Shown here one piece after another: positions 1,927 through 40,362 of a stretch of DNA of 40,410 bases; the stretch's first letter is position 1; each line of letters begins with the position of its first letter. Both the position numbers and the translations under genes were made by a program. Where the stretch lies: contig DAOPJC010000002.1 in assembly GCA_035399485.1 (NCBI GenBank), positions 1-40,410 on the forward strand, written 5' to 3'. Below the pieces are notes generated by a model. That model saw only the letters and a program-made list of their open reading frames with translations. It made no database searches and was not told where the DNA came from. Origin of the DNA: Bacilli bacterium. Lineage in GTDB: Bacteria > Bacillota_I > Bacilli_A > RF39 > UBA660.

Positions 1927-2364
1927 ATGGAAAAAGTAAAATTTGTCACAACATCTATATTTTTAGGAATTATATGTTTTTTTAATAGTTTATCTATACC
2001 TCTCCTTCTTTTAATAATTACCAATATTATTGATATTATTACTGGTCTTTTAAAATCCTTACACATAAATGAAAATATTACTTTTAAAAAATTAATTTGG
2101 GGATTAATAAAAAAATTTAGTATGTATTTATTAATTATTATTGGTTATATAATAGATATAATAATTATTTATACTGTGGAAAACTTTAATATTGCAATCA
2201 CTAATCAAAATATATTTGAAAGTTTAATTACAATATGGTTAATACTAGATGAATTATTAAGTATTTTAAAAAATTTTATGATTCTAGAAGTACCAATGCC
2301 TAATTTTCTTATTAAAATTGTTAAAAAATTAAAAAACAAAATAGATGATACTGAAAATGTATAA
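1927..2364 (+). CDS. holin, TcdE-like (phage_holin_4_1 family)
   Basis: 145 aa with 3-4 TM segments. The C-terminal motif ILDELLSILKNFMILEVPMPNFL parallels TcdE ILYESVSILKNMCLCGLPVPKRL. Strong RBS aaaggagg precedes it. No endolysin gene is adjacent. Confidence 0.8.
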   Translation: MEKVKFVTTSIFLGIICFFNSLSIPLLLLIITNIIDIITGLLKSLHINENITFKKLIWGLIKKFSMYLLIIIGYIIDIIIIYTVENFNIAITNQNIFESLITIWLILDELLSILKNFMILEVPMPNFLIKIVKKLKNKIDDTENV

Positions 2365-2370
2365 TTTTCT

Positions 2371-2399
2371 TTGACAAAAATATCTTATCGGAATATAAT
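2371..2399 (+). promoter_or_regulatory. perfect consensus sigma-A promoter in front of the HExxH gene
   Basis: TTGACA (2371-2376), exactly 17 nt, TATAAT (2394-2399). It sits about 24 nt upstream of the RBS 'tggagg' and ATG 2423. Confidence 0.7.
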
Positions 2400-2422
2400 A
2401 AAATCTTATATGGAGGCTAACT

Positions 2423-3232
2423 ATGAAAGATTCAACAACAATTATAAAAGATTTATTAAAAGGAAATTATTACATAAATTCTGAGGATATTAAAAATGTC
2501 ATTAATGCAATTTCAAATGAAGAAGATTTTAATAAATATATAGATAATATATCTATCGGTGAAAGAAAAAGAAAATACCAAGGTTCTTATGATCCTAATA
2601 AAAAAGAATTATCAATTCAACCAATTTATATAAATTATACTTGGGCACAAACATTAAGAAACTATAATTCTGTTAATGATAATGATAAGCTTGCTAAATA
2701 TAATAACTTGTTTTATTTAATTATTATATTACATGAATTAGAGCATGTTAAACAAGTTAAATACTCTGTTGAAAATAATGATAATAGAGCAATTAATAAA
2801 TTAGTAAATGAAGGTATAGAATTAGGTAGAAGAAGTCCAGATAAATTATCTGTAGGAGAAAAAATATTATATAACTTTACACCATTTACTGTATTAACTG
2901 AACGTGATGCAGAAATTAAATCAATATATAATATTGTTTTTAATGATGAGATTGCCGAACTTTTAACAAAAGAAGAATACTATTGTTTAGTTTGTAGATT
3001 GCATAAACTACTAATAAGAAACTATGAAATGCATGGCGAGAATGTAATAAGTCCTTCAAAAAGATATTATCAATTAAGAGGAAAATCTAAAGAATATAAA
3101 GACATCGAATTTGAAGATGATTATGATCATCTTACTAAACTTTCTTGGGGTATGCCTGTAGATTATAGATTCATTGAATATTTTACTAATGAAGCTAAAG
3201 TAAAAGATGTAAAAAGATTAATAAAAAAATAA
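2423..3232 (+). CDS. hypothetical protein with an HExxH zinc-metalloprotease motif; no signal peptide
   Basis: 269 aa. Contains LIIILHELEHVKQV (HExxH), followed about 27 aa later by NEGIE, a possible gluzincin third ligand. The hydrophilic N-terminus has no TM segment or signal sequence. I do not recognise the family. Confidence 0.45.
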   Translation: MKDSTTIIKDLLKGNYYINSEDIKNVINAISNEEDFNKYIDNISIGERKRKYQGSYDPNKKELSIQPIYINYTWAQTLRNYNSVNDNDKLAKYNNLFYLIIILHELEHVKQVKYSVENNDNRAINKLVNEGIELGRRSPDKLSVGEKILYNFTPFTVLTERDAEIKSIYNIVFNDEIAELLTKEEYYCLVCRLHKLLIRNYEMHGENVISPSKRYYQLRGKSKEYKDIEFEDDYDHLTKLSWGMPVDYRFIEYFTNEAKVKDVKRLIKK

Positions 3233-3256
3233 CCAATATAAATTGGTTATTTTTAT
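3231..3256 (+). terminator. rho-independent terminator of the HExxH gene
   Basis: Stem aaccaat / attggtt with loop ataa, followed by atttttattt. It overlaps the stop codon. Confidence 0.6.
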
Positions 3257-3294
3257 TTACCTTTATTTCATTAATACTATCAGATTCTTTCTAA

Positions 3295-4044
3295 TTAAAC
3301 ATTAGAAAATATTGAAACAATTATATTCCATACATTCGGAAATTCTTTTAAAATGGCAGTTCTTACTTCTTGTGAAGTATATAAATGTTTACCATCCTCT
3401 ATCATAAATTTAATTGGCCCATTAGGATTATAACCTAAGGCAATATGACCTCCTGATATACCCCCTGCCGCAATATCTCGTGCTACAGCAATTCCACCTA
3501 TGGAGTATATTCCTACAGCAACTCCTCCTATTGCAAATATTCCAAGTGCTACACCACCTATTGCAATTGTACCAATTGAAATACCACCTATTGCTAGTAA
3601 TAATGCTAATGCTAAACCACCTGTTGCAAATAAACCTAATGAAATACCACCTAAAGCAAATATTCCTAATGAAATTCCTCCTAAAGCAAATATTCCTTTA
3701 GCATAATTTCCTAAGGCAAATACTCCTTTTGCCTTTCTCAAATTTCTTAAATTATATCCAATATTAATATGAACTAATGGAAGATTTCCTATTTTTGTTT
3801 TACTTATATATTCATAATATTGCTTTTTATTATTAATACTTACATAATTATCATTTCCTATTAAATCATCAACACTTACGTTAAATAATTTAGATAATTC
3901 TTTTAATTTACCTAATTCTGGAGTAGTTTCACCAGTTTCCCATTTTGATATTGTTTGTCTTGCTACATTGACTTTATAACCTAATTCTTCTTGTGATAAA
4001 CCTTCTTGTTTTCTTAATTGTATTAATTTGTCACTAAAATTCAT
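3295..4044 (-). CDS. XRE-family HTH regulator fused to a glycine-zipper repeat (membrane?) domain
   Basis: N-terminus MNFSDKLIQLRKQEGLSQEELGYKVNVARQTISKWETGETTP is a classic HTH_3. Residues ~107-204 are 9-10 copies of G-[ILV]-[FY]-A-[LI]-G-G-[IV]-[SA]-[LV]. I chose ATG 4044 (RBS gaggagg at 4051-4057) rather than the track start 4077, which has no RBS. Confidence 0.8.
   Translation of the reverse strand: MNFSDKLIQLRKQEGLSQEELGYKVNVARQTISKWETGETTPELGKLKELSKLFNVSVDDLIGNDNYVSINNKKQYYEYISKTKIGNLPLVHINIGYNLRNLRKAKGVFALGNYAKGIFALGGISLGIFALGGISLGLFATGGLALALLLAIGGISIGTIAIGGVALGIFAIGGVAVGIYSIGGIAVARDIAAGGISGGHIALGYNPNGPIKFMIEDGKHLYTSQEVRTAILKEFPNVWNIIVSIFSNV
3433..3726 (-). repeat. in-frame tandem array of ~30-nt (10-codon) units inside the XRE gene
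   Basis: Encodes GVFALGNYAK GIFALGGISL GIFALGGISL GLFATGGLAL ... GIFAIGGVAV GIYSIGGIAV. DNA copies at 3635-3664 and 3665-3694 differ at only 2 positions (cctaatgaaat[a/t]cc[a/t]cctaaagcaaatatt). Confidence 0.85.
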
Positions 4045-6353: not shown

Positions 6354-6430
6354 TGGGGCGCGATGTGGGAATCGAACCCACGCATAATAGAACCACAATC
6401 TACCGTGTTAACCACTTCACCAATCACGCC
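6354..6430 (-). tRNA. tRNA-His (anticodon GTG)
   Basis: The reverse complement folds as a cloverleaf: G(-1)+GCGTGAT acceptor, anticodon stem GTAGA/TCTAT with loop TTGTGGT, T-arm GTGGG-TTCGATT-CCCAC. The 3' side reads ATCGCGC-C-CCA. The extra 5' G pairing with C73 is the His identity feature. Confidence 0.9.
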
Positions 6431-6502
6431 ATTTATGCATTACTGCTATATTTTACCAATAAATATAATTTTTTACAAGTCTTTTTGAAAAAAAATATAA
6501 AT

Positions 6503-6588
6503 TGGTACCGGTAGTCGGACTCGAACCGACACGGGCAAAACCCACTTGATTTTGAGTCAAGCATGACTACCAATTCCATCATACCGGC
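6503..6588 (-). tRNA. tRNA-Leu (anticodon CAA), class II with a long variable arm
   Basis: Reverse complement: GCCGGTA acceptor, anticodon stem CTTGA/TCAAG with loop CTCAAAA. Variable arm is GGGTTTTGCCC, T-arm is GTCGG-TTCGAGT-CCGAC, and the 3' end is TACCGGT-A-CCA. Position 1:72 would be a G:U pair. Confidence 0.85.
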
Positions 6589-9452: not shown

Positions 9453-10673
9453 TTATATATTAAAATTACCATTTTTAAATATTAATATTTTACCTTTATC
9501 TGTTGTTGCTTCTATTTCTAAATCTTTGGTACCCACCATAAAATCAACATGTACATTTGAAGAATTTAAGCCATTTTCTTTTAATTCAACTTGACTTAAA
9601 TTTCTACCATTTTTAATACCTACTGGTGAGGCTGCACCAATTGCAAAATGACATGATGCATTCTCATCAAATAATGTCTCATTAAAAACTAAATTAGTAT
9701 TTGATATTGATGAATTATAAGGAACTAAAGCTATTTCACCTAAATATTGTGCTCCTTCATTTTTGTATATCAATGTTTCTAATGTTTTTTGTCCTTCTTT
9801 TGCATAACATGATACAATTTGCCCATCAATAATTTTTAAATAAAAATCATTTATCAATGTATCATTGTAATATAAAGGTCTACTGGAATATACAATACCA
9901 TTTATTTTTCGATAATCTGGTGCAGTAAATATTTCATATGAAGGCATATTAGCAATCATTTGGTTTCCTTTAGCATCTTTTTTATCTAAATTTAACCATA
10001 CATAATCTTTTGGAAGTGCTACTTCTAAATCTGTTCCTAAAGAATTTTTATAATGCATTGTTTTAATATTTAAACTATTAAGAAGATTTTTATAATAATT
10101 ATTCATATTTATATGTTCTTGCCATGCTTTTATTGGATCATTTTTATCAACCATACACATTTTCATAATACTCAAATATAATTTTTCATAAGCATTTTTA
10201 TCATCTTTGAAGATTTGTTTAGCCCATCTTTCATTAGGAAGTGCAACTATACACCAAGGGAATGTATATTTTCTTACATTTCCGCGATAATATTCTGTTG
10301 TCTTTTGTCTTTCTTCTACTAATCTTTGCATTTTTTCTTCTTCAATATCATTCATTAATCCTGGAACAGTAGAATTTAAGAACAATAATGATGCTCCTTT
10401 TTTTGCATAATCGTTCCAATTTGTTCTGTCTGTTAAGTAATTAGGTTTTATGTCTTCTAATTTTGTGTTTTTTAAATAATCATGAATTTCATCTAAATCT
10501 GCCACATTTATACATACATCATATATACCCATTTCATTAGCTCTTTTTTTGACTTTTTCAGCAAAGGTTATATGTTCTTTAAAATCACAATTAATCATTA
10601 AGGATTTCGCTTGTTCGAAATTTAAGCATCTATTTAATATTAAATCTATATATTTACTTTCTAATTCTTCCAT
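9453..10673 (-). CDS. ampS: aminopeptidase, M29 (AmpS/PepS) family
   Basis: About 406 aa. M29-type motifs: GEIALVP, LFDENASCHFAIG, VHVDFMVG. Start set at ATG 10673 behind RBS GAGGTGG, which lies inside the track's 4-codon extension. Confidence 0.8.
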   Translation of the reverse strand: MEELESKYIDLILNRCLNFEQAKSLMINCDFKEHITFAEKVKKRANEMGIYDVCINVADLDEIHDYLKNTKLEDIKPNYLTDRTNWNDYAKKGASLLFLNSTVPGLMNDIEEEKMQRLVEERQKTTEYYRGNVRKYTFPWCIVALPNERWAKQIFKDDKNAYEKLYLSIMKMCMVDKNDPIKAWQEHINMNNYYKNLLNSLNIKTMHYKNSLGTDLEVALPKDYVWLNLDKKDAKGNQMIANMPSYEIFTAPDYRKINGIVYSSRPLYYNDTLINDFYLKIIDGQIVSCYAKEGQKTLETLIYKNEGAQYLGEIALVPYNSSISNTNLVFNETLFDENASCHFAIGAASPVGIKNGRNLSQVELKENGLNSSNVHVDFMVGTKDLEIEATTDKGKILIFKNGNFNI

Positions 10674-10720
10674 AATCCACCTCATTAATTATTTATTATA
10701 ACATATTAAAAAAAATTTGA

Positions 10721-11236
10721 TTAATCAATCTTAATCAAATCTTGTGTTTCTATATATTTTAAAAACTGTTTACTATTTATATTATAACTAGGTTTATTAT
10801 ATTTATAAATATTAATGTCATTATTGCCATTATCTAAAAATTTAACTTTTACGTCTTGTAATAGTTCATTTATTGAATTATATTCATAAATACCTTTATA
10901 TTTTTCCCATGAATGCTCTAACCAATAGTATTTATTCAAATCTTTTGCAACAACAAAGGTATGCGTTTGAAAACTATCATTATTACCTTTACTTATTAAA
11001 TACGAATCACAATCTATATTTTCTTTATTTAGTAAATATCTTTCTAATTCGACTTGATCCCAACAAACACCACATTTTTTTTGTAATAACTCTTCTGGAG
11101 ATAACAAATGATAATGTTTATTAAAATTATCTTGCCAAGTATCCATATTATCAATCATATTATAATTATTAGAGTCTTTAAAACCATATTCTATATGATT
11201 TAGTTCATCCATTATTTTATTAAGTTTTTCTAACAT
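10721..11236 (-). CDS. hypothetical protein, possibly transglutaminase-like/papain-fold (Cys-His)
   Basis: 171 aa. The spacing of KKCGVCWDQVELERYLL ... QTHTFVV ... WLEHSW resembles the Cys/His/acid core of transglutaminase-like proteins. Weak call. Confidence 0.35.
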   Translation of the reverse strand: MLEKLNKIMDELNHIEYGFKDSNNYNMIDNMDTWQDNFNKHYHLLSPEELLQKKCGVCWDQVELERYLLNKENIDCDSYLISKGNNDSFQTHTFVVAKDLNKYYWLEHSWEKYKGIYEYNSINELLQDVKVKFLDNGNNDINIYKYNKPSYNINSKQFLKYIETQDLIKID

Positions 11237-11248
11237 AAATTCACCTAC

Positions 11249-11923
11249 TTAAAGTAATCCTATTATTAAAGCAATATAACCAACTATATTGATTATTGAA
11301 TGAAGTATTATCGATGCAAATACATTTTTATATTTTACATAAAAGGATGTTAGAATTAACGATGGTAGTAAATAATAAAAGAATTCTTCTATTCTAACTA
11401 TATGAATACAATCAAATAAAACTATAGAAATAATAAAAGCAATAACTAAATTAATTTTATTATCTCTCTTATTTATTATAGAGAAGCGAAAAGTCATTTC
11501 TTCTATTACTGGGGCAAATATACAGCCTTGAATAATTGTTAAAATAATTGGTACAGCTATCATTTGTTCTTTTACTGTACTATTATTTTGAGGTAATATA
11601 TCTAATTTTAGTTTACTTGTTAAATATATTAATAATCCTGAAAGAAATAAATCTAATATAAGAAATATTAATATATTTAGCCAAAATTTTCTATTTTTAA
11701 ATTGTTTACTTTTTAATTCTTTCCATTCATTTACTAATTCTTTCTTAAATATGATTATAACTAATATAAATAAAATTACATAAACAATAAGTGAAGCCCA
11801 TTCTTTTGAAACGATTGGAGCTATTATTTCCCATAATCCAAAATTAATTGAGTAAAATAAAATTATTAAAACTAATTCCTTCCACTCATTTTTTACAAAT
11901 TTCATTAATGCATTATCATTCAT
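11249..11923 (-). CDS. CPBP-family intramembrane glutamic endopeptidase (CAAX/Abi)
   Basis: Multi-TM protein with the three CPBP motifs: APVIEEMTFRF (EExxxR), LFDCIH (FxxxH) and LHSIINI (HxxxN). Confidence 0.85.
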   Translation of the reverse strand: MNDNALMKFVKNEWKELVLIILFYSINFGLWEIIAPIVSKEWASLIVYVILFILVIIIFKKELVNEWKELKSKQFKNRKFWLNILIFLILDLFLSGLLIYLTSKLKLDILPQNNSTVKEQMIAVPIILTIIQGCIFAPVIEEMTFRFSIINKRDNKINLVIAFIISIVLFDCIHIVRIEEFFYYLLPSLILTSFYVKYKNVFASIILHSIINIVGYIALIIGLL

Positions 11924-15237: not shown

Positions 15238-16209
15238 TATATTATCTAGCATTATTCCTGTACCTTCAGCAACACATGTTAGTGGATTACTTGCGACATA
15301 AACTGGTATTTGTAATTCTTTTTCTATAATTTTATCTAGACCTTCCATTAATGCTCCTCCACCTGTCATAATTATTCCTTTATTTATGATATCGGCAGAT
15401 AATTCTGGTGAAGTTTGTTCTAATACCAATTTAGCATTATGTATTATATTTTTTACTGAATCTTTTAATGCTTCTTCTACTTCATCAGAAGTAATTTCTA
15501 TAGTATCAGGTAAACCTGTTACTATGTTTCGACCTCTAACTTTCATAGCTTCTTTTTTCTTTTTATTATATACTGTACCTATTTTAATTTTAATATCTTC
15601 AGCACTTCTTTCACCAATTAATAATTTATATTTATTCTTAATATATTTAATTATTTCTTGATCAAAAGTATTACCAGCCACTTTGATTGAAGCACTATTA
15701 ACTATTCCACCTAGTGATAATACAGCTATATCAGTTGTTCCACCACCAATATCTATTATCATACTTCCTGTTGGTTTAGATATATCAAGACCTGCTCCTA
15801 CAGCAGCTACTTTTGGTTCCTCTTCAATAAAAACTTTTTTAGCTCCTATTTTTTCAGCAGCTTCCTTAATAGCATTCTTCTCAACTTGAGTTATATTTGA
15901 AGGACAACATATTAAAATTCTTGGTTTAGAAAAAGGATTCTTACCATTTATTTTTTTTAGAAATTCTTCTAACATTGTTTCTGTTACTTCAAAATCTGCA
16001 ATTACTCCATCTTTCATTGGTTTAATTGCTGAAACTTTAAATGGAGTTCTGCCTAACATTTCTTTAGCTTCTTTACCTACAGCTAATACTTTTTTTGTTT
16101 CTGCTTCTATTGCGACAACACTTGGTTCATCTAATACTATTCCTTGACCTTTTACATATATTAGTACATTTGCTGTTCCTAAATCTATTCCTATATCTTT
16201 TGAAAACAT
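15223..16209 (-). CDS. mreB: rod-shape-determining actin homologue MreB/Mbl
   Basis: MFSKDIGIDLGTANVLIY..., DIGGGTTDIAV and IIMTGGGALMEGLD are actin-fold phosphate/adenosine motifs. Its position directly after spoIIID matches mbl in Bacillus subtilis. Confidence 0.93.
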   Translation of the reverse strand: MFSKDIGIDLGTANVLIYVKGQGIVLDEPSVVAIEAETKKVLAVGKEAKEMLGRTPFKVSAIKPMKDGVIADFEVTETMLEEFLKKINGKNPFSKPRILICCPSNITQVEKNAIKEAAEKIGAKKVFIEEEPKVAAVGAGLDISKPTGSMIIDIGGGTTDIAVLSLGGIVNSASIKVAGNTFDQEIIKYIKNKYKLLIGERSAEDIKIKIGTVYNKKKKEAMKVRGRNIVTGLPDTIEITSDEVEEALKDSVKNIIHNAKLVLEQTSPELSADIINKGIIMTGGGALMEGLDKIIEKELQIPVYVASNPLTCVAEGTGIMLDNIHLID

Positions 16210-16218
16210 TTCATCACC

Positions 16219-16470
16219 TTATTTTATATTTAAATATCTAAGTTTTGTAGATTCGCCACCTCTTATATGTCTAACGTTAATATGATGTTTCAAAATTTTT
16301 TCAATTTTCCTATATTTTTCTTCATCAATTCCTTTTAATCGTTGATGTAAGTCTTTATGGACTGTACTTTTAGACACATTAAATTTCTTAGCTATTTCTC
16401 TTATTGTTTTTTGTGAATCTATCATATAATCTACTTCTTTTGATATTCTATTAAAAATAGTAGAATTCAT
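16219..16470 (-). CDS. spoIIID: sporulation transcriptional regulator SpoIIID
   Basis: 83 aa. TIREIAKKFNVSKSTVHKDL...HINVRHIRGGESTKLRY closely parallels B. subtilis SpoIIID (VIAKEFGVSKSTVHKDL...SIRHLRGGEATKLKY). Confidence 0.92.
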   Translation of the reverse strand: MNSTIFNRISKEVDYMIDSQKTIREIAKKFNVSKSTVHKDLHQRLKGIDEEKYRKIEKILKHHINVRHIRGGESTKLRYLNIK

Positions 16471-16516
16471 ATAACACCCCTTAATTAATTATATAAATTC
16501 TACTTTTATTTATTCT

Positions 16517-17149
16517 TTATAATTCACTTATATTTTTATTATAGTATTCTTCAGGATTAACAATTTGACCTTTATATAACATTTCAAATAGTAAATGCTC
16601 ATTTAAATCTTTATTTATATTAGATGTACCTGCTTTACCAATTACATCACCTTGTTTAACAACTTGATTTTCTTTTACTGTAATATCAGCTAAACTTTGA
16701 TAAACACTAATTAATTCATTATCATGTTTTATCTCTACTACATTTCCAAGTAAATCATCTTTTTTTATACTTAATACTGTGCCATCTAGAACAGAAATTA
16801 CTTCAAAATTTTTAGCTCCACCATACGCTACGGCATAATTAGGCATGTAAGTTGATTCATAATATATTATTGAGTTTTGTTGTTCTTCATCTGTACCTTG
16901 ATAATTATAGAAATTTTTTACTATTTTTACATTGGTATCTAAGTATGGCTTTATTATTATTGATTCGGTATTAACTACTGGTATTTCATCATTAATTACA
17001 ATCTTACTAACATATTCCTGATCAATATCAATATTTTCTTTACCTTTATCAAATGATAAATTAACCAAACTTAATGAAGATATTAAACCTATCATTGCAA
17101 CTCCACATAATAAATATTTACTTGTTTTTGTTAATCTAAACTTTTTCAT
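16517..17149 (-). CDS. spoIIQ: membrane-anchored degenerate LytM/M23-domain protein, SpoIIQ-like
   Basis: N-terminal TM plus a C-terminal M23 fold (GTVLSIKKDDLLGNVVEIKHDNELISVYQSL...VKQGDVIGKAGTS). The HxxxD motif is absent and HLHFE is degraded to HLLFE. The spoIIQ-spoIIID-mbl order matches Bacillus. Confidence 0.6.
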   Translation of the reverse strand: MKKFRLTKTSKYLLCGVAMIGLISSLSLVNLSFDKGKENIDIDQEYVSKIVINDEIPVVNTESIIIKPYLDTNVKIVKNFYNYQGTDEEQQNSIIYYESTYMPNYAVAYGGAKNFEVISVLDGTVLSIKKDDLLGNVVEIKHDNELISVYQSLADITVKENQVVKQGDVIGKAGTSNINKDLNEHLLFEMLYKGQIVNPEEYYNKNISEL

Positions 17150-18823: not shown

Positions 18824-19457
18824 TTAAAGTAAAACGATAAATATCGACATTTTTTATATAGCCAACCCTTATTAAATATTTAATTTACAACCGTAAATAT
18901 TTAATTTTTTAGGTAATAATATTAATTGCGCGCGAATATTAAAATTATCACTTTTATTAAATTAATTAAATTATCTACTTTTCCCTTTTTCTCATATATC
19001 TACTCTCAATTATTTGGAATTCAAATTTAATTAATTTTTAAATTATTAAGAATGCACTTATATAGTCTCTTATTCTTACATATAACAATTTCTTATATAA
19101 CTATCAAAATATCAAACACGTTTACATGAAGTCGAATGTAAATATTTTTCATATCTTTTCATATTATCAATTTCTATTAACTTAATAATTTTTAAAATAT
19201 AATAAACCCAGTTTAATATAATTATCATATTTAAGAAATTATATGCCTATATATAGGTCTTATATTCAGTTAATATTATAGTTATATATATTTAGCTCAA
19301 TCTTTCTACCTCCTTCTATATTAATTATATCATCTGTAATTTTGTTAATATCTAGTAAAATACAAATTTATAAAATTATACACTTAATTTTACATTTTAA
19401 TATATCTCACTATTTTATTACTTTTATATATTGATAATATTATTATAATTTTGGGAA

Positions 19458-19495
19458 ATAAAAAAATAGTAGGCTTAAAAATATTTCCCACTATT
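19458..19495 (-). terminator. rho-independent terminator of rpmE
   Basis: Minus-strand RNA forms aauagugg g...ccuacuauu, a 9-bp stem with one G:U pair. A T7 run follows. Confidence 0.7.
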
Positions 19496-19526
19496 ATATA
19501 CATAAAAAAAATAATATATTTCTATA

Positions 19527-19730
19527 TTATTTATTTAATCCATATTTACGATTGAATTTTTCTACACGTCCTGTTTTTGTAGCAGTACCTTGTTTACCTG
19601 TAAAAAATGGATGACATTGATTACAAACTTCAACGTGTAATTCATTTTTGTTTGATTTTACTGTGAAAGTGTTTCCACAAGCACAAGTTACTTTTGTATC
19701 AACATAATTTGGATGAATATCTTTTTTCAT
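19527..19730 (-). CDS. rpmE: 50S ribosomal protein L31, Zn-ribbon (C+) form
   Basis: [26 protein letters not shown]...[15 protein letters not shown]. Both CxC/CxxC pairs are present. Confidence 0.95.
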
Positions 19731-19814
19731 TCTAATTCTCCTTCCGCCATGACAATACTTGTCATAGTAATTTTGCTTTTATATTATAACAATAATATGT
19801 TAAATATGTCAATA

Positions 19815-20459
19815 TTATTTTCTACTTTTACCAAATAATCTTAATAATTCTATAAATATATTAATAAAATCTAAGTATAATTCGAATGCTCCTATTATAG
19901 CAACTCTATCATCATCTTGCATAGCTTCTTGTAAACGTTTAATTTTTTGCATATCATAAGCAGTTATTCCCATAAATAAGCATACACATAGAATTGATAG
20001 CACCATATCTAATCCTGTACTTTTAATGAACATATTAAATATAGAAACAAGTATTACACCTAATAATCCCATAAATAGAATAGTTGATATTTTTGATAAA
20101 TCCATTTTTGTTTTTGATCCTACGTATGCAAATATACCAAATATGCCTGCAGTTAGAACAAATACATAAATAATAGAATTTACTGAAAAATAAGCAAATA
20201 ATACTGCAAATGTTAAACCTGTCATAAATGAATACAAACAGAATAATACTTTAGCAGTTAATGGTTGCATTTTGTTAATGCGAGCTGTTAATACTACTAC
20301 TATAACTATTTCTATTAAATAGATAAAAACTTGTATCCCAGATGTAAAAATATTATATAACATATTTTCATTACCAGATACTACATAACCAGTAACAAAT
20401 GTTATTAATAATCCAATAAACATCCATAAAAATACTTTACTAACTAATTTATTTTCCAT
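19815..20459 (-). CDS. Bax inhibitor-1/YccA-family membrane protein
   Basis: 214 aa with 7 TM segments. The C-terminal signature AIIGAFELYLDFINIFIELLRLFG is typical of the BI-1 family. Confidence 0.85.
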   Translation of the reverse strand: MENKLVSKVFLWMFIGLLITFVTGYVVSGNENMLYNIFTSGIQVFIYLIEIVIVVVLTARINKMQPLTAKVLFCLYSFMTGLTFAVLFAYFSVNSIIYVFVLTAGIFGIFAYVGSKTKMDLSKISTILFMGLLGVILVSIFNMFIKSTGLDMVLSILCVCLFMGITAYDMQKIKRLQEAMQDDDRVAIIGAFELYLDFINIFIELLRLFGKSRK

Positions 20460-31811: not shown

Positions 31812-32234
31812 TTATCTACCCTTTCTTATTATTGGTTTTATAATTAAACTATCCATTAATATATTCATTATTGAAATAAATATTGCCACTATGAAAGACA
31901 TTAATATACCACTTATATTAAAGTGATTTCCCATAATAAAATCTGTTATATTTAAAATAATTACATTTACGAATGGATAAAATAATCCCATAGTTATACC
32001 TGTTATTGGTAATGTTAACCATATTAATATTGGTTTAATTGTTTTGTTTAATAAATATATGATAATAGCTGTTATTAATCCCCATAAACCATAACATGAT
32101 GAATCAATTTGAACAGTTTTTTTAAATATCAATGATACTAATATTAATATTAAAGTATATCCTATCATATGGATAAGCCAATCAAATAATATATTTATCT
32201 TTGTTTTTTCTTTTACTATACTTACTACTTTCAT
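31812..32234 (-). CDS. YvlD-like membrane protein (phage_holin_4_2 superfamily)
   Basis: 140 aa with 4 TM segments. The KPILIWLTLPITGITMGLFYPFVNVIIL motif resembles B. subtilis YvlD. Confidence 0.7.
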   Translation of the reverse strand: MKVVSIVKEKTKINILFDWLIHMIGYTLILILVSLIFKKTVQIDSSCYGLWGLITAIIIYLLNKTIKPILIWLTLPITGITMGLFYPFVNVIILNITDFIMGNHFNISGILMSFIVAIFISIMNILMDSLIIKPIIRKGR

Positions 32235-32276: not shown

Positions 32277-33113
32277 TTAAATGTTTTTTAGAAAGTTACA
32301 GTGTTTACATAATTCTTCATTTCTCTTATTATTATTAAAACTATTAATTATTTCTACACTTCTTTTACTGTTAAGTATTTCTTCTAATGATTTTTCAAAT
32401 ATATTACCTAATGCTATTATTCCTTCACCATCTAAACAACATGGAACTACTGTACCATCACTTAATATTCCTATATGTGTTTTCAATCCATAACATTTTC
32501 CAGTCTCAACATATAGATTATTACTTAATTCAGGCCATATAAATTCTAAACCCTTATTAATAAATAAAGTTTCATTAATTTTTATATTAGATTCATTATA
32601 TATTTTTTCTTTAATATCATTATTTATTTTATAATAATTTATTAATGAATTTATATAAATATTATCTTTTATACTTTCATTTTCTTTTAATATCCAATAT
32701 CTATATACTATATATATATTACTATTATTATTTATGTAGTCTATTGTATCAAATAATATTTTTAAATCATTTAGATTCGTATATGAATGTAGACTTATAT
32801 TAATTTGTCTAATACATTTTTTATTAATAATAAATTCTTTATATTTATATAATAAAGTTCCATTAGTTGTTATATTAACATTAATATTATTTTCTTCACA
32901 AACATTAATTATTTCTTTAAAATTACTATGTAATAAAGGTTCTCCTTTTACATGAAGATATACATAATCAGTAAAAGATTTAATTTCCGTTATTACATGT
33001 TTAAATTCTTCTAAATTCATTTCTTTCTTTATTCTATTTGTTTTTGAACAAAAACTACAATTTCTATTACAAGAGTTAGTTATCTCTATATAAATTTTTT
33101 TGAACCTAATCAT
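32277..33113 (-). CDS. radical SAM enzyme with a C-terminal SPASM-like Cys cluster
   Basis: [15 protein letters not shown] gives the CxxxCxxC motif. C-terminal Cys residues are CYGLK...VPCCLDGEG...CKHCNF. Its start overlaps the uvrB stop (ATGA). Confidence 0.8.
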
Positions 33114-35768: not shown

Positions 35769-36506
35769 TTATAATTTTGCGACACTATTTTTATTTAATA
35801 AAGTATTTGAAATAAATTTTTGATTATTAAATACTGCCCAGTTATTAAATATACATGGAACATTTTTTGCTTTTTCTAGACTATCTATTTTAATTAATCT
35901 AATATCTTTTTTTGTTTCTTCGATATATTCATTTGTTTCTTTTATACAGTTCTCTACATAAGGACATTGATTTGTATAATATATTATAATACCTGAATCA
36001 GAAATACTCATTAATTTTACAGATTCAGTAAACTTAGGTTTTTCCTTATCATTAAATGATAAACATAGTAATTCATAATCTCCTAGTGTTTCAATAACTT
36101 CAAATCCATATTTTATAAAGAAAGATTTTTCTGATATAAATGGTTTCTTCTTTTTTGAAGATAATACACATATCCCATTTTTGTTGTTATCTTTGGCATC
36201 TTTAATTGCGTACTCTAATAATTCTTTACCATAACCATTATTTTTATAGCTACCTGCTACCCATAAGCAATATATATAATTATAATTATTTCCTTCAATT
36301 GGTACCCAAGCTTTTTCTAATGGGGCATATTCAATAAACACTTTACCTTGTGCATTTAATTTTCTAAATACATGTCCTTCTTTTATTCTATCTTTTAACC
36401 ATTCTTTTTTTGCTAATACGCCTTGTTCATGTTTTTTATCACTTATTGCGCAACATAAGTGCTCATTACTAATATTTTCTAATGTTATATTTATATATTC
36501 ATTCAT
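35769..36506 (-). CDS. GNAT N-acetyltransferase with a YoaP-like C-terminal domain
   Basis: GNAT core is LWVAGSYKNNGYGKELLEYAIKDAK. C-terminal IIIYYTNQCPYVENC is the YoaP-like thioredoxin-fold signature. Confidence 0.7.
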   Translation of the reverse strand: MNEYINITLENISNEHLCCAISDKKHEQGVLAKKEWLKDRIKEGHVFRKLNAQGKVFIEYAPLEKAWVPIEGNNYNYIYCLWVAGSYKNNGYGKELLEYAIKDAKDNNKNGICVLSSKKKKPFISEKSFFIKYGFEVIETLGDYELLCLSFNDKEKPKFTESVKLMSISDSGIIIYYTNQCPYVENCIKETNEYIEETKKDIRLIKIDSLEKAKNVPCIFNNWAVFNNQKFISNTLLNKNSVAKL

Positions 36507-36528
36507 TTATTTCTTACTCCTTTATAAA

Positions 36529-36552
36529 AAGTCTACTAATCAGTAGACTTTT
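36529..36552 (-). terminator. terminator closing the signal-peptidase operon
   Basis: Stem agtctact / agtagact with loop aatc, flanked by A/T runs so it is bidirectional in form. It overlaps the stop codon at 36536. Confidence 0.55.
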
Positions 36553-37597
36553 TTTCATTATCTAATAAATATTGATACAAAATGTTATTATGTATTAATG
36601 TAAATTCACCTTTAATATTTTCCTCTATTTCATAAAACATTATTGGTATTCTCAATTCTTCCTCTAAATCTACCATTTCATTAAAATTCTTAACTAATAT
36701 TATTTCATAATTACTCTTGTCTACTTGATCAATTACTTCTATTATTATATCACCATATTCTTTTAATATTTTATTTAATCCTATAGTATATAATGTTTTT
36801 GGTGGTATGTTAAATATTATTTTATATAAAGCCACAATTAGAATTACTGAACATATTAAAGATATAATTCCACAAGTTAATTTTCTATAATCTAGGCTTT
36901 CTATTTCAGTATTAACAAATATATTTTGATTTTTTGTTTCAACATATTCAGCATTAATTTTAAATGCTTGTTGATTTAATGGAATTGTTAATACTTGCTC
37001 TGATGAATCATATATTTTACTTGGATTATTTTTAGATTGAACAGTAACTGCCATTTTAACAATTAAATTTGCATTTATTGGTAGTTTTAATTCTTTTCTA
37101 AAAGTTGTTACTTCTCCATCATAATTATGAAAATCTAAACTTACTTTTTCTTTAATTGTAAATTGAGAAGTATCAGTTAATTCTTTTGATGTTGATTCTA
37201 CAAAAGTATATTTTTTGGTCCATACCTTTGATTTAGAATTTTCTTCATCTAATTTATAATCACCATAAATTGTTCCTAATATACTATATTTATATATTAA
37301 TGGTTCTACTGTCGTACCTGAATAATTATAAGTAAATGTAGGAACAATAGTACTTATTAAATCAGCTATGTAGGTTTCGTTTTTACCTAAATGATCTTCT
37401 TCTATAAAACTATTTTTATATAAATTTACTACATAATCTAGATTCTGACCTACATGATATGTATATTCTATTTCTTTATTCTTTTTAGTATTCCAATTGA
37501 CACTTTTTATTATAAGATTGCAAGATACTATGAAAACAGCGATTATAGCAAAAAAGATAGCTATTCGTACCCATTTTTTTAACACTCTCTTTTTCAT
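36536..37597 (-). CDS. bitopic membrane protein, DUF5305-like (family typically adjacent to SipW-type peptidases)
   Basis: 353 aa. TM1 is WVRIAIFFAIIAVFIVSC. A roughly 210-aa beta-rich external region follows, then TM2 LTCGIISLICSVILIVALYKIIF and a roughly 90-aa cytoplasmic tail. RBS agaggtg. The family assignment is from memory of that architecture, not a search. Confidence 0.5.
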   Translation of the reverse strand: MKKRVLKKWVRIAIFFAIIAVFIVSCNLIIKSVNWNTKKNKEIEYTYHVGQNLDYVVNLYKNSFIEEDHLGKNETYIADLISTIVPTFTYNYSGTTVEPLIYKYSILGTIYGDYKLDEENSKSKVWTKKYTFVESTSKELTDTSQFTIKEKVSLDFHNYDGEVTTFRKELKLPINANLIVKMAVTVQSKNNPSKIYDSSEQVLTIPLNQQAFKINAEYVETKNQNIFVNTEIESLDYRKLTCGIISLICSVILIVALYKIIFNIPPKTLYTIGLNKILKEYGDIIIEVIDQVDKSNYEIILVKNFNEMVDLEEELRIPIMFYEIEENIKGEFTLIHNNILYQYLLDNEKKSTD

Positions 37598-37611
37598 AAC
37601 TTCTCACCTCT

Positions 37612-38790
37612 TTAAGTTTCAACTTCTACCTTTGTTTTATTAAATATTTCATTTAATAATACTGCGGCATAGCCTATTTTTGGAACTTTAAATTGTACTA
37701 TTGATATTATTTGATCTTTATATACTGGTTTTATATCATTTGCATTATTATGATCACCCTTGGTAATAAAGTAAATTTCTCCTTTTGTTGTTTTTTTAAT
37801 ATCAACTATTCTATGAACAACAATATAAGTATCTAGCTTATATTCTATTATATCATTTATTCTTAAATTTTCTTTTTCTTCATCTTTAATTTTTTTGACT
37901 ACTACTACATCTCCACGTTTTATCAAATCAGCCATACTATTTGACATTATTGCAACTGGCATATAAGTTAATATACCTGCAACAAACGCTACAAATATTA
38001 ATAAAAATATTATGAATGGAGCTTGCTTAATAGGATTACTTTTTCTTATTTCTCTTCTTGAATCTCTAAACATTCTTCTTTCCTGAATATAATTTATAAA
38101 CAAGAAAGTGATAAATGGTACTAGTAAATCAATAATTGCTACTATAAACCATTCCAAATTTGGAAATAATGGCATAAATAATGTTGTTAGTATTACTGGG
38201 ATTCTATAACATAAGTTACAACCATATCCACCTACAACAGCTAAATATGTAAACAATATATTTTTTACTAAGACAGGTAATATAAATGAAGATATGTATT
38301 GAAATCCTGCTTCTAAATCAACAAAATTATCACCTATTTTATAAAAGCTTATTTCCGCACAAGTAAATATTAAAACTATTAATATATAATTAAACATTTT
38401 ATGTTTGCCTGATGGAAGCATAGCTTCTCTTATATATTCTTGAAAGAAAATAATGATTACAAAACCCCATATATTTTTTATTACTGATATTAACTCATGA
38501 CTATATGGTGATCTCTCATAACCAAAGAATATACCTAAAAAGAAATAAATAAATAAATATAACATTGTTATTATTAATACTGTTTGAGTTTTTTCTGTTT
38601 TAGCCCTTAATCTTCTTTTCTCTGAATAATTTAGTATTAAAGAAAAAATAAACATATTCATCCAAAACAATGGATTTACTATATAATTATAATCGAATTT
38701 TTTACTATCAATTAATAATATAGAAAATACTATTATATATATAATTAAAAAACTATAAACCAATACATTTTTAATATTAATATTTTTCAT
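37612..38790 (-). CDS. fusion of a ~8-TM domain of unknown function to a SipW (ER/archaeal)-type S26 signal peptidase
   Basis: 392 aa. Residues 1-~250 are polytopic with about 8 hydrophobic segments. The C-terminal ~135 aa carry AIMSNSMADLIKRGDVVVV (SxSM Ser box), YIVVHRIVDI (the xTHRI His box of SipW) and ITKGDHNNANDI (the TKGDNN box). Confidence 0.75.
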   Translation of the reverse strand: MKNINIKNVLVYSFLIIYIIVFSILLIDSKKFDYNYIVNPLFWMNMFIFSLILNYSEKRRLRAKTEKTQTVLIITMLYLFIYFFLGIFFGYERSPYSHELISVIKNIWGFVIIIFFQEYIREAMLPSGKHKMFNYILIVLIFTCAEISFYKIGDNFVDLEAGFQYISSFILPVLVKNILFTYLAVVGGYGCNLCYRIPVILTTLFMPLFPNLEWFIVAIIDLLVPFITFLFINYIQERRMFRDSRREIRKSNPIKQAPFIIFLLIFVAFVAGILTYMPVAIMSNSMADLIKRGDVVVVKKIKDEEKENLRINDIIEYKLDTYIVVHRIVDIKKTTKGEIYFITKGDHNNANDIKPVYKDQIISIVQFKVPKIGYAAVLLNEIFNKTKVEVET

Positions 38791-38797
38791 ACTTCAC

Positions 38798-39640
38798 CTA
38801 TTTCCCTTTTGCATTAGAAATTATAGGGTTTATTGTTTGTTCTGTTGAGGATAATTGAAAATCTATTGTAATACTTGCTCCTGCCCCTATTTGACCATTC
38901 CAATCTTTATTAGAAACAGTAATTATTCCATTTTCTGTATCAATATAATTTGAATTCCACATACCTTCAATCTTAGTACTTGATGATACTCCCATATCAA
39001 AACTCCAAGATGTTATAGGTTCAGTAGTATTATTTGTTAAAGTCACATTATATTGAAAAACTTTTTTATTATCTCCACCTGGCCAACTATTTGCAAGAGT
39101 TATTGAAGAAGATAATTCTTTTGCAGGAATTTGTGGATTATCTCCGCCACTTCCACCTTTATTTGTATCTTTAAATATTTTAATATTATCTAATTCTAAA
39201 TTTTCTGTTGGTGTACTAAACATTACTCCTAAACTAACTTCTACATTAGGAGCCAATAAAGAATCATAATCTAAATTCTTTAAAGTTAATACATTTCCCG
39301 ATGCTGTTGCACTGACATTCCAGAAAGATAAATTTTGAATTTCATCTGGCATTTCTATATCAATGCTCCAACCATCTATATCTTTTGAAGATTTATTTAC
39401 TATTTTTATTTCAAATTTATAATATCTATCTCCATTTTCATTATACCATGTATTTTTAATATATGTAAATTCTATATCATCAGTTATTTCTACTTTTTCT
39501 ACTAAATTACCTTTTCCTGTTAGTGATAGATTTTGATATAAATAAGAATAACCTACACTTATAAATAATAAAGTACACGTAAAAATTATAATTAAATGAT
39601 GTAATTCTAATCTTTTATGAATTTTTCTTTTCTTTTTCAT
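38798..39640 (-). CDS. secreted or anchored protein with two CBM2-like beta-sandwich domains
   Basis: 280 aa. The N-terminal anchor ends in ISVGYSYLYQNLSLTGKGNL. Domain 1 reads IKIVNKSSKDIDGWSIDIEMP...FWNVSATASGNVLTLKNLDYDSLLAPN...LGVMFS. A GGSGGDNPQ linker follows. Domain 2 reads VTLTNNTTEPITSWSFDMG...MWNSNYIDTENGIITVSNKDWNGQIGAGASITIDFQLS. Confidence 0.55.
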   Translation of the reverse strand: MKKKRKIHKRLELHHLIIIFTCTLLFISVGYSYLYQNLSLTGKGNLVEKVEITDDIEFTYIKNTWYNENGDRYYKFEIKIVNKSSKDIDGWSIDIEMPDEIQNLSFWNVSATASGNVLTLKNLDYDSLLAPNVEVSLGVMFSTPTENLELDNIKIFKDTNKGGSGGDNPQIPAKELSSSITLANSWPGGDNKKVFQYNVTLTNNTTEPITSWSFDMGVSSSTKIEGMWNSNYIDTENGIITVSNKDWNGQIGAGASITIDFQLSSTEQTINPIISNAKGK

Positions 39641-39651
39641 ATTATCTACCC

Positions 39652-39682
39652 CTAAAAAAATAAGGCAAAAAACTTTGCCTTT
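39652..39682 (-). terminator. intra-operon terminator after the first gene
   Basis: Stem aaggcaaa / tttgcctt with a 4-nt loop, followed on the minus strand by ATTTTTTT. It lies between stop 39700 and the RBS of the next gene. Confidence 0.65.
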
Positions 39683-39699
39683 ATTTTTAAAAAACTAAA

Positions 39700-40224
39700 C
39701 TATGCAGTTTTTTGTACGAAATTTAAATTAATTGTTGCTGTTTTAGTTGTTGTTGTTGGTATTGTATCTGGATGTTCTGGATCTGTTGAAGCAACCCAAG
39801 TAACTGTTACTAATACTTTTTTAGAAACTTGTGAATCTAAAGAATCATTAGCAGCCATACCTGTTACGGCATATTGAATTTCTACTGGAGCAGTAGTATT
39901 AGCTGTGTCTACTCCTGTAATACTTTCAAGTGTCGCATCAATTGAACCTTTGTTTTCAACAGTAATTTCATATGTTGCTGTTGCACCAGGATATTGTAAA
40001 TCTACTTCGAAGCTTGCACTTGTACCAGTTGCAGTAATTTCTCCAACTGTTGTAGCTCCTGTCATAGTTTTTTCAGCAATATCAGTAAATTCAATATTCC
40101 AACTTGCATTGATATTTGATTTACCATTAATTACTAATTGTTGTGCTAATGCTGCGTAACCAACTGACATACCAACTATTGCTACGATTAAAGCAACAAT
40201 TACTATATTTCTTTTATTTATCAT
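39700..40224 (-). CDS. small secreted Thr/Ala-rich beta-sandwich protein, TasA/camelysin-like (putative major structural subunit)
   Basis: 174 aa with strong RBS aggagg. N-terminal anchor is IVIVALIVAIVGMSVGYAALAQQLVINGKSNI. The core FEVDLQYPGATATYEITVENKGSIDATL recalls the TasA/camelysin pattern (...L.PGD......N.GS.D..L). There are no Cys residues. Confidence 0.5.
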   Translation of the reverse strand: MINKRNIVIVALIVAIVGMSVGYAALAQQLVINGKSNINASWNIEFTDIAEKTMTGATTVGEITATGTSASFEVDLQYPGATATYEITVENKGSIDATLESITGVDTANTTAPVEIQYAVTGMAANDSLDSQVSKKVLVTVTWVASTDPEHPDTIPTTTTKTATINLNFVQKTA

Positions 40225-40335
40225 TCCAAACTACCTCCTATTTTTAATCTAATTAAAGTTTATCATAGTATTTCATTTTTTACAACAAAATGATTTTTTT
40301 CTTTACAATTATTTACATCTATATTTATATATAAA

Positions 40336-40362
40336 CAAAAAAAGCATGTTTATACATGCTTA
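40336..40362 (-). terminator. terminator of an upstream minus-strand gene lying mostly outside the window
   Basis: Stem aagcatgt / acatgctt with loop ttat. A T7 run follows on the minus strand. It insulates the 39700-40224 gene from upstream transcription. Confidence 0.6.

Follow-up and report, generated by a model that had tools for sequence, protein, structure and literature searches.

Four closely spaced genes in a 40,410-nucleotide stretch of DNA from a Bacilli bacterium (GenBank assembly GCA_035399485.1, contig DAOPJC010000002.1; the whole stretch is called the window below) raise the question of which extracellular structure they encode, and whether such a system is already known. A first-pass annotation, made from the letters alone, had read them as a candidate undescribed assembly system with no known counterpart of the same composition. 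The present analysis supports its main idea, namely that the genes form a coherent module for extracellular assembly in which a dedicated Ser/His signal peptidase has at least two substrates. The claim of novelty did not hold, as loci of this kind are described in a preprint on the fibre protein AbpX and three of the four proteins are homologous to components of those loci. The cassette is a divergent variant of the AbpX/TasA-superfamily fibre loci, an architecture published in 2025-2026, and not a new kind of system.

The cassette consists of four open reading frames (ORFs) on the minus strand, which carries nearly all genes of the window (~24% G+C). In the order of transcription these are A (39700-40224, 174 amino acids), B (38798-39640, 280 amino acids), C (37612-38790, 392 amino acids) and D (36536-37597, 353 amino acids), separated by gaps of 59, 7 and 14 nucleotides, as the first-pass annotation had it. 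That annotation had also named conserved co-occurrence of the four genes as a check on its proposal. Loci encoding a relative of A were scanned, with one genome per species and the closer A sequences as the query, and the gene order A-(B)-C-(A2)-D was found in all 32 loci obtained, B being usual and a second A copy occasional. Nearly all of these loci come from metagenome-assembled genomes from gut, rumen or faeces, labelled by their depositors as Bacilli, Lactobacillales, "Tenericutes", Clostridia or Clostridium sp., and in three cases as Candidatus Saccharibacteria. As the flanking genes are not shared, with no other window gene having a counterpart in more than 3 of the 32 loci, the conserved unit is the cassette itself. 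In the three Saccharibacteria loci, the G+C content is 44-51% in cassette and flanks alike, and these cassettes are therefore native to Saccharibacteria genomes and not carried by misassigned low-GC contigs. Thus, the four-gene cassette is a real, widely conserved unit of uncultured gut bacteria.

Two of the loci, L008 and L020, are labelled uncultured Muribaculaceae and have 20-26% G+C with a cassette typical of the Bacilli loci; judged against the G+C content that we take to be usual for Muribaculaceae, this bin label is probably wrong, and a low-GC member of the Bacilli fits better. In L029 (10832-11638) and L031 (2902-3765), the gene for a leader-bearing protein of 268-287 amino acids follows D and does not stand between A and C, so the position of the second-substrate gene is not fixed.

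Protein A is the predicted major subunit. Its residues 1-24 (nucleotides 40153-40224, minus strand) form a predicted signal peptide ending in GYA, followed by a predicted donor strand at residues 25-38, ALAQQLVINGKSNI (40111-40152, minus strand), and by a beta-sandwich at residues 44-171 (39712-40095, minus strand). An 84-amino-acid ORF antisense to this gene (39905-40159, plus strand) was taken as a by-product of the composition of the coding strand and not as a gene. The core that had been quoted as TasA/camelysin-like, FEVDLQYPGATATYEITVENKGSIDATL, is present in A, and the resemblance stands at the superfamily level only: A has no above-threshold match in Pfam or NCBIfam, the camelysin and TasA families of Pfam included, and the alignment of family profiles favoured another relative. 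With hhalign, the A family matched the AbpX-family profile at 97.2% (E value 2.8e-11, 158 columns) and the AbpX sequence at 95.4% (92 columns), compared to 19.9% for TasA. In the same way, when the A-family profile was searched against the PDB, the best sequence matches were the AbpX structures 9SJ2 and 9RHP (E value 1.4e-3), with TasA far behind (E value 0.49), whereas a single-sequence PDB search with A gave nothing useful. The identity between A and AbpX is only ~20%.

The family defined by A is very large and practically unnamed. An exhaustive profile search returned 9,531 clusters (at 50% identity) with E values up to 1e-3, 472 of them with E values up to 1e-30, and the weak tail of this set includes giant proteins that match solely at a YPGA...N.G repeat segment. 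None of the 113 close clusters found by homologue search is descriptively named, and the relatives identified by exact sequence are annotated as hypothetical at most. About 40% of 129 diverse members are longer than 250 amino acids, the additional length being C-terminal cargo; in the long members examined, BspA-type leucine-rich repeats (LRR), DUF6273 or Listeria-Bacteroides repeats follow the A domain. In the cassettes, a small cargo-free A gene always comes first.

In the AlphaFold2 (AF2) model of A (predicted local distance difference test, pLDDT, 85), a helix at residues 4-25 and a coil at 26-43 precede confident strands that form a beta-sandwich at 44-171, so modelled A looks as would be expected of a subunit awaiting a partner strand. 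The mature protein, as predicted, has an isoelectric point (pI) of 4.2 and 11% Asp plus Glu. The AbpX subunits are likewise acidic, with a pI of about 4 and roughly 15% Asp plus Glu (bioRxiv 10.64898/2026.01.04.697558); thus A shares the acidic character of the subunits in AbpX loci, with a somewhat lower share of acidic residues.

A and B have a common leader and strand motif, GY[AS]/xLxQxLx[IL]xGK, where the slash marks the predicted cleavage site. A reads VGMSVGYA/ALAQQLVINGKSNI and B reads ISVGYS/YLYQNLSLTGKGNL, the latter matching the leader and strand of A position for position. Across the A family the sequence is SVGYA/A[LF]xQxLxIxGT, and over the 129 diverse members the motif is M-[AS]-V-G-Y-A-A-[LF]-x-[QTS]-x-L-x-I-N-G-T-A-x-I. 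The precursor of AbpX reads GLTYA/QWSETLSLSATI, or over the longer stretch given in the supplement of the preprint LTAIGLTYA/QWSETLSLSATISTG (bioRxiv 10.64898/2026.01.04.697558), and the strand of A is in register with it at the hydrophobic positions 2, 6 and 8 and at the small residue at position 10. The claim that the leader differs from that of TasA was correct, and the leader can now be assigned to the AbpX type. When all ORFs of the window and of the 32 loci were searched for the motif, 63 carried it, all of them in or beside cassettes: these are genes of the A and B types and a small number of adjoining ORFs. At least two motif-bearing ORFs were found in 27 of the 32 loci. The amphipathic N-terminal strand is also the most conserved part of mature A, as is expected of an intermolecular interface.

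A separate observation concerns L036 (GCA_021771185.1, contig JAETPN010000004.1), a Bacilli locus in which four genes with the GYA leader and the A domain (2295-3815, 10001-11185, 16104-16703 and 19318-20175) are dispersed over 21 kb among housekeeping neighbours, with no peptidase gene among them. Two of the four also encode BspA-type LRR repeats. Such scattering of leader-bearing genes hints at a wider sorting role.

Protein B combines the leader (residues 1-32, ending in GYS, minus strand) with two CBM2-like modules, one at about residues 61-150 (39191-39460, minus strand) and the other at residues 181-274 (38819-39100, minus strand). The two modules recognised in the first-pass annotation were borne out by Pfam, where B matched CBM_2 at 80.8 bits (cutoff 24) in two stretches, and CBM49 as well. 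When module 2 was aligned to the Cex CBM2a structure 1EXG and to 6F7E, Trp was found at all three presumed binding-face positions, which in Cex we take to be W17, W54 and W72; module 1 has W, W and Y at these positions, as judged by eye. Nine of 10 B homologues tested, Saccharibacteria included, matched CBM_2, eight of them above the Pfam cutoff. Therefore, the CBM2 signature and the aromatic strip are kept, and carbohydrate binding by B is predicted from them. B has no A-type domain, and it is predicted to be a donor-only cap or adhesin.

Protein C was said to be a signal peptidase of the Ser/His (SipW, ER/archaeal) type fused to a large membrane domain, and both parts of this description were upheld. 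Residues 1-240 (38071-38790, minus strand) form an eight-helix membrane domain in the AF2 model (pLDDT 76), with helices at 6-28, 31-53, 64-89, 100-123, 131-146, 159-186, 189-205 and 214-240. Next comes a strongly basic loop, then a ninth helix at residues 257-273, and last the peptidase domain; the ninth transmembrane helix and the Sec11/SipW-type signal peptidase I together occupy residues 257-392 (37612-38022, minus strand). With a low-confidence C-terminal helix added to the nine confident ones, C agrees with the roughly ten transmembrane helices of the peptidases in AbpX loci. A basic N-terminus on the inside and nine transmembrane helices would place the peptidase domain outside the cell. 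The C-terminal part scored 79 bits against TIGR02228 (archaeal/ER-type signal peptidase I; cutoff 51.85), compared to 62.4 bits against the SipW equivalog NF046067, which is below its cutoff of 190. The closest solved relatives are human SEC11A/C, on which the modelled peptidase domain is superposed by Foldseek and of which SEC11A is matched by the family profile with an E value of 1e-16. The catalytic residues Ser285 (SNSM), His326 (VHR) and Asp346/Asp352 are invariant in the C family. The window shows C as its sole signal peptidase I.

The membrane domain of C could be traced to the AbpX-type loci. The C family aligned with the 411-amino-acid peptidase of the archaeal locus L034 over both domains (hhalign 99.8%, E value 2e-28, 327 columns), and that locus encodes, in the same order as the window, an AbpX-like protein of 186 amino acids, a protein of 226 amino acids, the peptidase and a DUF5305 protein of 357 amino acids. 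At the level of structure, Foldseek with the modelled domain found SpdC (6u0o_A; E value 5e-3, TM-score 0.56 over 268 columns) and Rce1 (4cad; TM-score 0.46-0.50). CPBP proteins carry the catalytic motifs EExxxR, FxxxH and HxxxN. Family conservation of the C membrane domain revealed no recognisable form of any of the three, its invariant residues being N106, E118, R121, P207, P210 and W214, with no invariant His. Pfam CPBP (PF02517) was matched by none of 32 C-family members, and the PDB profile search was negative for CPBP as well. A genuine CPBP (Rce1-like, PF02517) membrane protein is encoded elsewhere in the window (11249-11923) and has no sequence similarity to the C membrane domain, hhalign giving 0.2% between it and the C family. 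CPBP membership was therefore rejected, and the modelled resemblance to CPBP/Rce1 is one of fold only. In four loci (L017, L018, L021 and L023), the C gene appears as two adjacent ORFs, one for the membrane part and one for the peptidase part, which could be due to a frameshift, a pseudogene or an assembly error.

Protein D matched DUF5305 (PF17231) at 62.4 bits (cutoff 29). It had been called bitopic, which was not correct: the hydropathy profile gives two transmembrane helices, at 12-30 and 244-262, with an outside domain of ~210 amino acids between them and a cytoplasmic domain of ~90 amino acids after the second, a layout that fits the published description of DUF5305. As in the AbpX loci, a DUF5305 protein is present throughout, D being found in all 32 loci directly after C or after the second A copy. 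BLASTP aligned D with the DUF5305 protein of L034 within the cytoplasmic domain (E value 3e-6), and a single-sequence PDB search revealed no link between D and any solved structure. By analogy with other DUF5305 proteins, which have been proposed as accessory subunits of peptidases (PMC11821415, PMC12337348, bioRxiv 10.64898/2026.01.04.697558), D is proposed to be an accessory subunit of C. The comparisons by hhalign and BLASTP with AbpX and with L034 together indicate that A, C and D are homologous to parts of AbpX-type loci and are arranged in the same architecture.

The boundaries of the transcription unit agreed only in part with the two bracketing terminators that had been proposed. Upstream, the cassette is bounded at its 5' end by a terminator-like hairpin (40342-40361, minus strand; 8-bp stem with 3 G-C pairs and a T-run), with which the preceding transcription unit ends. 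The 5' leader and promoter region, as read from the sequence, extends over 40225-40341 (minus strand); it contains a ribosome-binding site (RBS), AGGAGG, at 40234-40239, 9 nucleotides 5' of the ATG of gene A, and matches to sigma-70-like elements are weak, which makes it a candidate promoter at most. Downstream, a palindromic hairpin at the stop codon of D (36526-36553) marks the 3' boundary of the conserved cassette. It overlaps the stop codon, has its T-run inside the stem and is directly followed by the RBS of the next gene, and is therefore at best a weak terminator. That gene (35769-36506), for a GNAT acetyltransferase with a YoaP-like C-terminus, starts 29 nucleotides past the end of D and is possibly co-transcribed; none of the 32 related loci has a counterpart of it. 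A further hairpin with a T-run, which the first-pass annotation had not listed, was found directly 3' of gene A (39662-39681, minus strand), between A and B. A comparable stem-loop lies 3' of the A gene in ~22 of the 32 loci, the folds being judged by eye. This hairpin may be an attenuating terminator that raises the ratio of A to the accessory proteins.

Taken together, these data make a surface fibre with a cellulose-binding protein at its tip the most likely product of the cassette. In the mechanism that we propose, A and B would be exported through Sec by means of their N-terminal hydrophobic leaders and cut after the conserved G-Y-[A/S] by C, with its catalytic domain facing outward and with D as an accessory. 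Cleavage would release the amphipathic strand at the N-terminus of each protein (ALAQQLVINGKSNI for A, YLYQNLSLTGKGNL for B), and the strand of one A would enter the incomplete beta-sandwich of the next, so that donor-strand complementation would give rise to an acidic extracellular fibre. As B has the strand and no A-type acceptor domain, it could be placed only at the end of the fibre with an open groove, where it would act as cap or nucleator, and its two CBM2 modules would tie the fibre to a cellulose-like polysaccharide, for example on plant particles in gut or rumen. The hairpin after gene A would probably keep A in excess over B, C and D.

We consider it probable that the cassette works in this way, as a fibre operon of the AbpX type within the TasA superfamily, and several results weigh against it. 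In AbpX, two donor-strand residues, one aromatic (position 2) and one acidic (position 4), are critical and tied to calcium-mediated assembly (bioRxiv 10.64898/2026.01.04.697558). Among the 129 diverse members of the A family, L (61%) or F (36%) is usual at position 2, and Q, T or S (93%) at position 4; A itself has L2 and Q4. The strand and its register are conserved, and the two residues critical in AbpX are not, so that assembly may differ or need another trigger. The cassette also encodes no cell anchor of the LPXTG or SLH type. When the full-length model of A was compared to the PDB with Foldseek, nothing was found below an E value of 1e-3, TasA ranking 9 and AbpA 20 among generic beta-sandwiches, a comparison that the leader helix and the free strand probably spoil. 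Finally, the 380-amino-acid peptidase of Pyrodictium abyssi, the archaeon from which AbpX comes, aligned over the catalytic domain only, so the link for the membrane domain depends on L034, and the 149-amino-acid peptidase of a Saccharibacteria locus (L028, 9319-9768), whose gene is partly masked with N, lacks the eight-helix domain, which is therefore not indispensable.

Some of these points would suit a surface-display or sorting system without a homopolymeric fibre, in which the GY[AS] leader would be a sorting signal for the multi-helix peptidase and the A-domain proteins, many with cargo, would be displayed one by one or in short oligomers, with D or an uncleaved leader keeping them at the membrane. 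The missing calcium-assembly residues and the missing anchor speak for such a system, as do the use of the A domain as the N-terminal module of many longer proteins with BspA-type LRR, DUF6273 or Listeria-Bacteroides repeats and the four scattered leader-bearing genes of L036. We regard it as rather unlikely, since the closest characterised relative, AbpX, is a fibre, the amphipathic strand is what mature A conserves best, and the small cargo-free A always comes first, in many cases with an attenuator-like hairpin behind it, a pattern of major-subunit genes. A broader version of the fibre reading is less likely than not, and we put it forward tentatively: the cassette might be the core of a widespread, unannotated N-terminal sorting and polymerisation system of Bacilli and Saccharibacteria that live with hosts, in which the C fusion (CPBP-fold domain and signal peptidase) and D would read the M[AS]VGYA/A[LF]xQxLxIxGT leader on many dispersed proteins and build calcium-free mixed donor-strand fibres. 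Its clients would be CBM2 lectins and A-domain proteins, the latter either plain subunits or fusions to BspA-type LRR, DUF6273 or other adhesin modules, and the eight-helix domain would serve a separate function, for example holding the leader or handing over the strand, making the system a functional counterpart of sortase-built pili.

The two remaining explanations have little to recommend them. An orthologue of the Bacillus tapA-sipW-tasA operon, or of the Clostridium sipW-bsaA matrix operon, would account for the type of peptidase and for the weak TasA matches (E value 0.021 in NCBIfam, and that of the PDB profile search). It is very unlikely, as the TasA equivalog gave 14.3 bits against a cutoff of 450, the SipW equivalog also fell far below its cutoff, hhalign preferred AbpX to TasA, and neither a Pfam match to the camelysin/TasA family nor a TapA-like protein was found in the cassette. 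To our knowledge, SipW has no eight-helix domain and the Bacillus tapA-sipW-tasA operon no DUF5305 gene. Therefore, TasA-operon orthology is effectively refuted, and what survives of it is membership of the same superfamily; the functional logic drawn up in the first-pass annotation is largely borne out. Least probable of all is a housekeeping signal peptidase that adjoins unrelated secreted proteins by chance. The sole point in favour, that C is the only signal peptidase I of the window, is outweighed by the order kept in all 32 loci of Bacilli-type, Clostridia-labelled and Saccharibacteria genomes with unrelated flanks, and by a shared leader confined, in the window and these loci, to ORFs in or beside cassettes.

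The rest of the window is that of a Bacillota chromosome, as shown by an L31-Firmicutes ribosomal-protein leader (19738-19767; Rfam RF03156, 36.8 bits) and by housekeeping genes that include DnaB, ribosomal protein L9, WhiA, Lgt, MreB and ScpA/B. It also carries tRNA-His and tRNA-Leu (6354-6588) and two holin-family proteins, Phage_holin_4_1 and Phage_holin_4_2 (1927-2364 and 31812-32234), with no evident prophage context. A radical-SAM/SPASM protein (32277-33113) is encoded ~3.4 kb downstream of the cassette with a 4-nucleotide overlap with uvrB; in three loci (L020 from 719, L024, and L030 from 7112), a homologue with the same orientation as the A gene is encoded upstream of it, by chance or by linkage.

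New here are the subfamily of gut Bacilli and Saccharibacteria, which is very large and unannotated, the absence of the calcium-binding residue from its donor strand, and the CBM2 partner, which is conserved. If the fibre is confirmed, a donor-strand type known until now from work on a hyperthermophilic archaeon would be extended to abundant uncultured bacteria of gut and rumen and to Saccharibacteria. Since neither Pfam nor NCBIfam offers a model for the A family, thousands of "hypothetical proteins" could be recognised as fibre subunits or fibre-borne adhesins, and the CBM2 partner suggests a simple route of attachment to plant fibre for bacteria with small genomes. A donor strand lacking the calcium-binding residue would be a natural test of the assembly trigger, and the fusion of peptidase and eight-helix domain, together with DUF5305, would offer a tractable bacterial model for why such fibres need their own signal peptidase.

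Among known systems, several could be set aside. Sortase-dependent pili were rejected because A ends in NLNFVQKTA and B in ISNAKGK, without LPXTG, and a sortase domain is absent from all four proteins of the cassette; type IV pilins were rejected because the conserved motif follows the hydrophobic helix instead of preceding it and the peptidase is a Ser/His signal peptidase I. A literature search for TasA together with Saccharibacteria found nothing relevant. For the membrane domain of C, the predicted fold of residues 1-240 superposes on SpdC of S. aureus (6U0O) and on Rce1 (4CAD), with neither sequence similarity nor a conserved His. The peptidase can be compared to the eukaryotic signal peptidase complex (SEC11A/C with accessory subunits, PDB 7P2P, 7P2Q): the catalytic domain of C is closest to SEC11, and D, a separate membrane protein with a far-side domain, is the proposed accessory, whereas the eight-helix domain of C has no counterpart there.

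Other known systems are fibres with a dedicated signal peptidase. In two reports on B. subtilis TapA-SipW-TasA, the fibre is described as built by N-terminal donor-strand exchange, with a strand contributed by the accessory protein (PMC9674648, PMC10151520). That system resembles the cassette in its dedicated archaeal/ER-type signal peptidase and its accessory strand donor, whereas the cassette is not orthologous and has a nine-helix peptidase, a DUF5305 protein and a CBM2 lectin as accessory. In the Tafi system of haloarchaea, deletion of the cluster peptidase TafD blocks the processing of TafA and fibre formation, and TafG, the DUF5305 protein of the cluster, is proposed to work with TafD (PMC11821415, PMC12337348). 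Tafi (TafA/TafE) thus shares with the cassette a donor-strand fibre and a dedicated signal peptidase clustered with a DUF5305 protein. Identity with Tafi was rejected, as its subunits carry twin-arginine translocation (Tat) signals whereas A and B (MINKRN..., MKKKRK...) have no RR motif, and TafD has four helices and a C-terminal Ig-like domain in contrast to the N-terminal eight-helix domain of C.

The closest match is AbpX of P. abyssi, described in a preprint of January 2026, in which the structure of the fibre was solved and polymerisation was found to proceed by donor-strand complementation. AbpX-like loci of archaea (Thermoproteota), Bacillota and Chloroflexota encode an AbpX-like major subunit together with minor or tip subunits, as well as a DUF5305 protein and a signal peptidase I that has ten transmembrane helices, and the bacterial ones are reported with LPXTG or SLH anchors and with genes for cyclic di-GMP (c-di-GMP) (bioRxiv 10.64898/2026.01.04.697558). 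Like the cassette, these loci have a small acidic beta-sandwich subunit whose Sec leader ends in Y-A and precedes an amphipathic donor strand in register; they also have an additional protein with such a strand (minor or tip), a DUF5305 protein and a Sec11-type signal peptidase I with multiple helices. The cassette differs from the bacterial AbpX loci in lacking LPXTG or SLH anchors and c-di-GMP genes, and from AbpX loci in general in a donor strand with L or F at position 2 and no acidic residue at position 4, in a tandem CBM2 lectin as the partner, and in its hosts, which are low-GC uncultured Bacilli of gut and rumen and Saccharibacteria.

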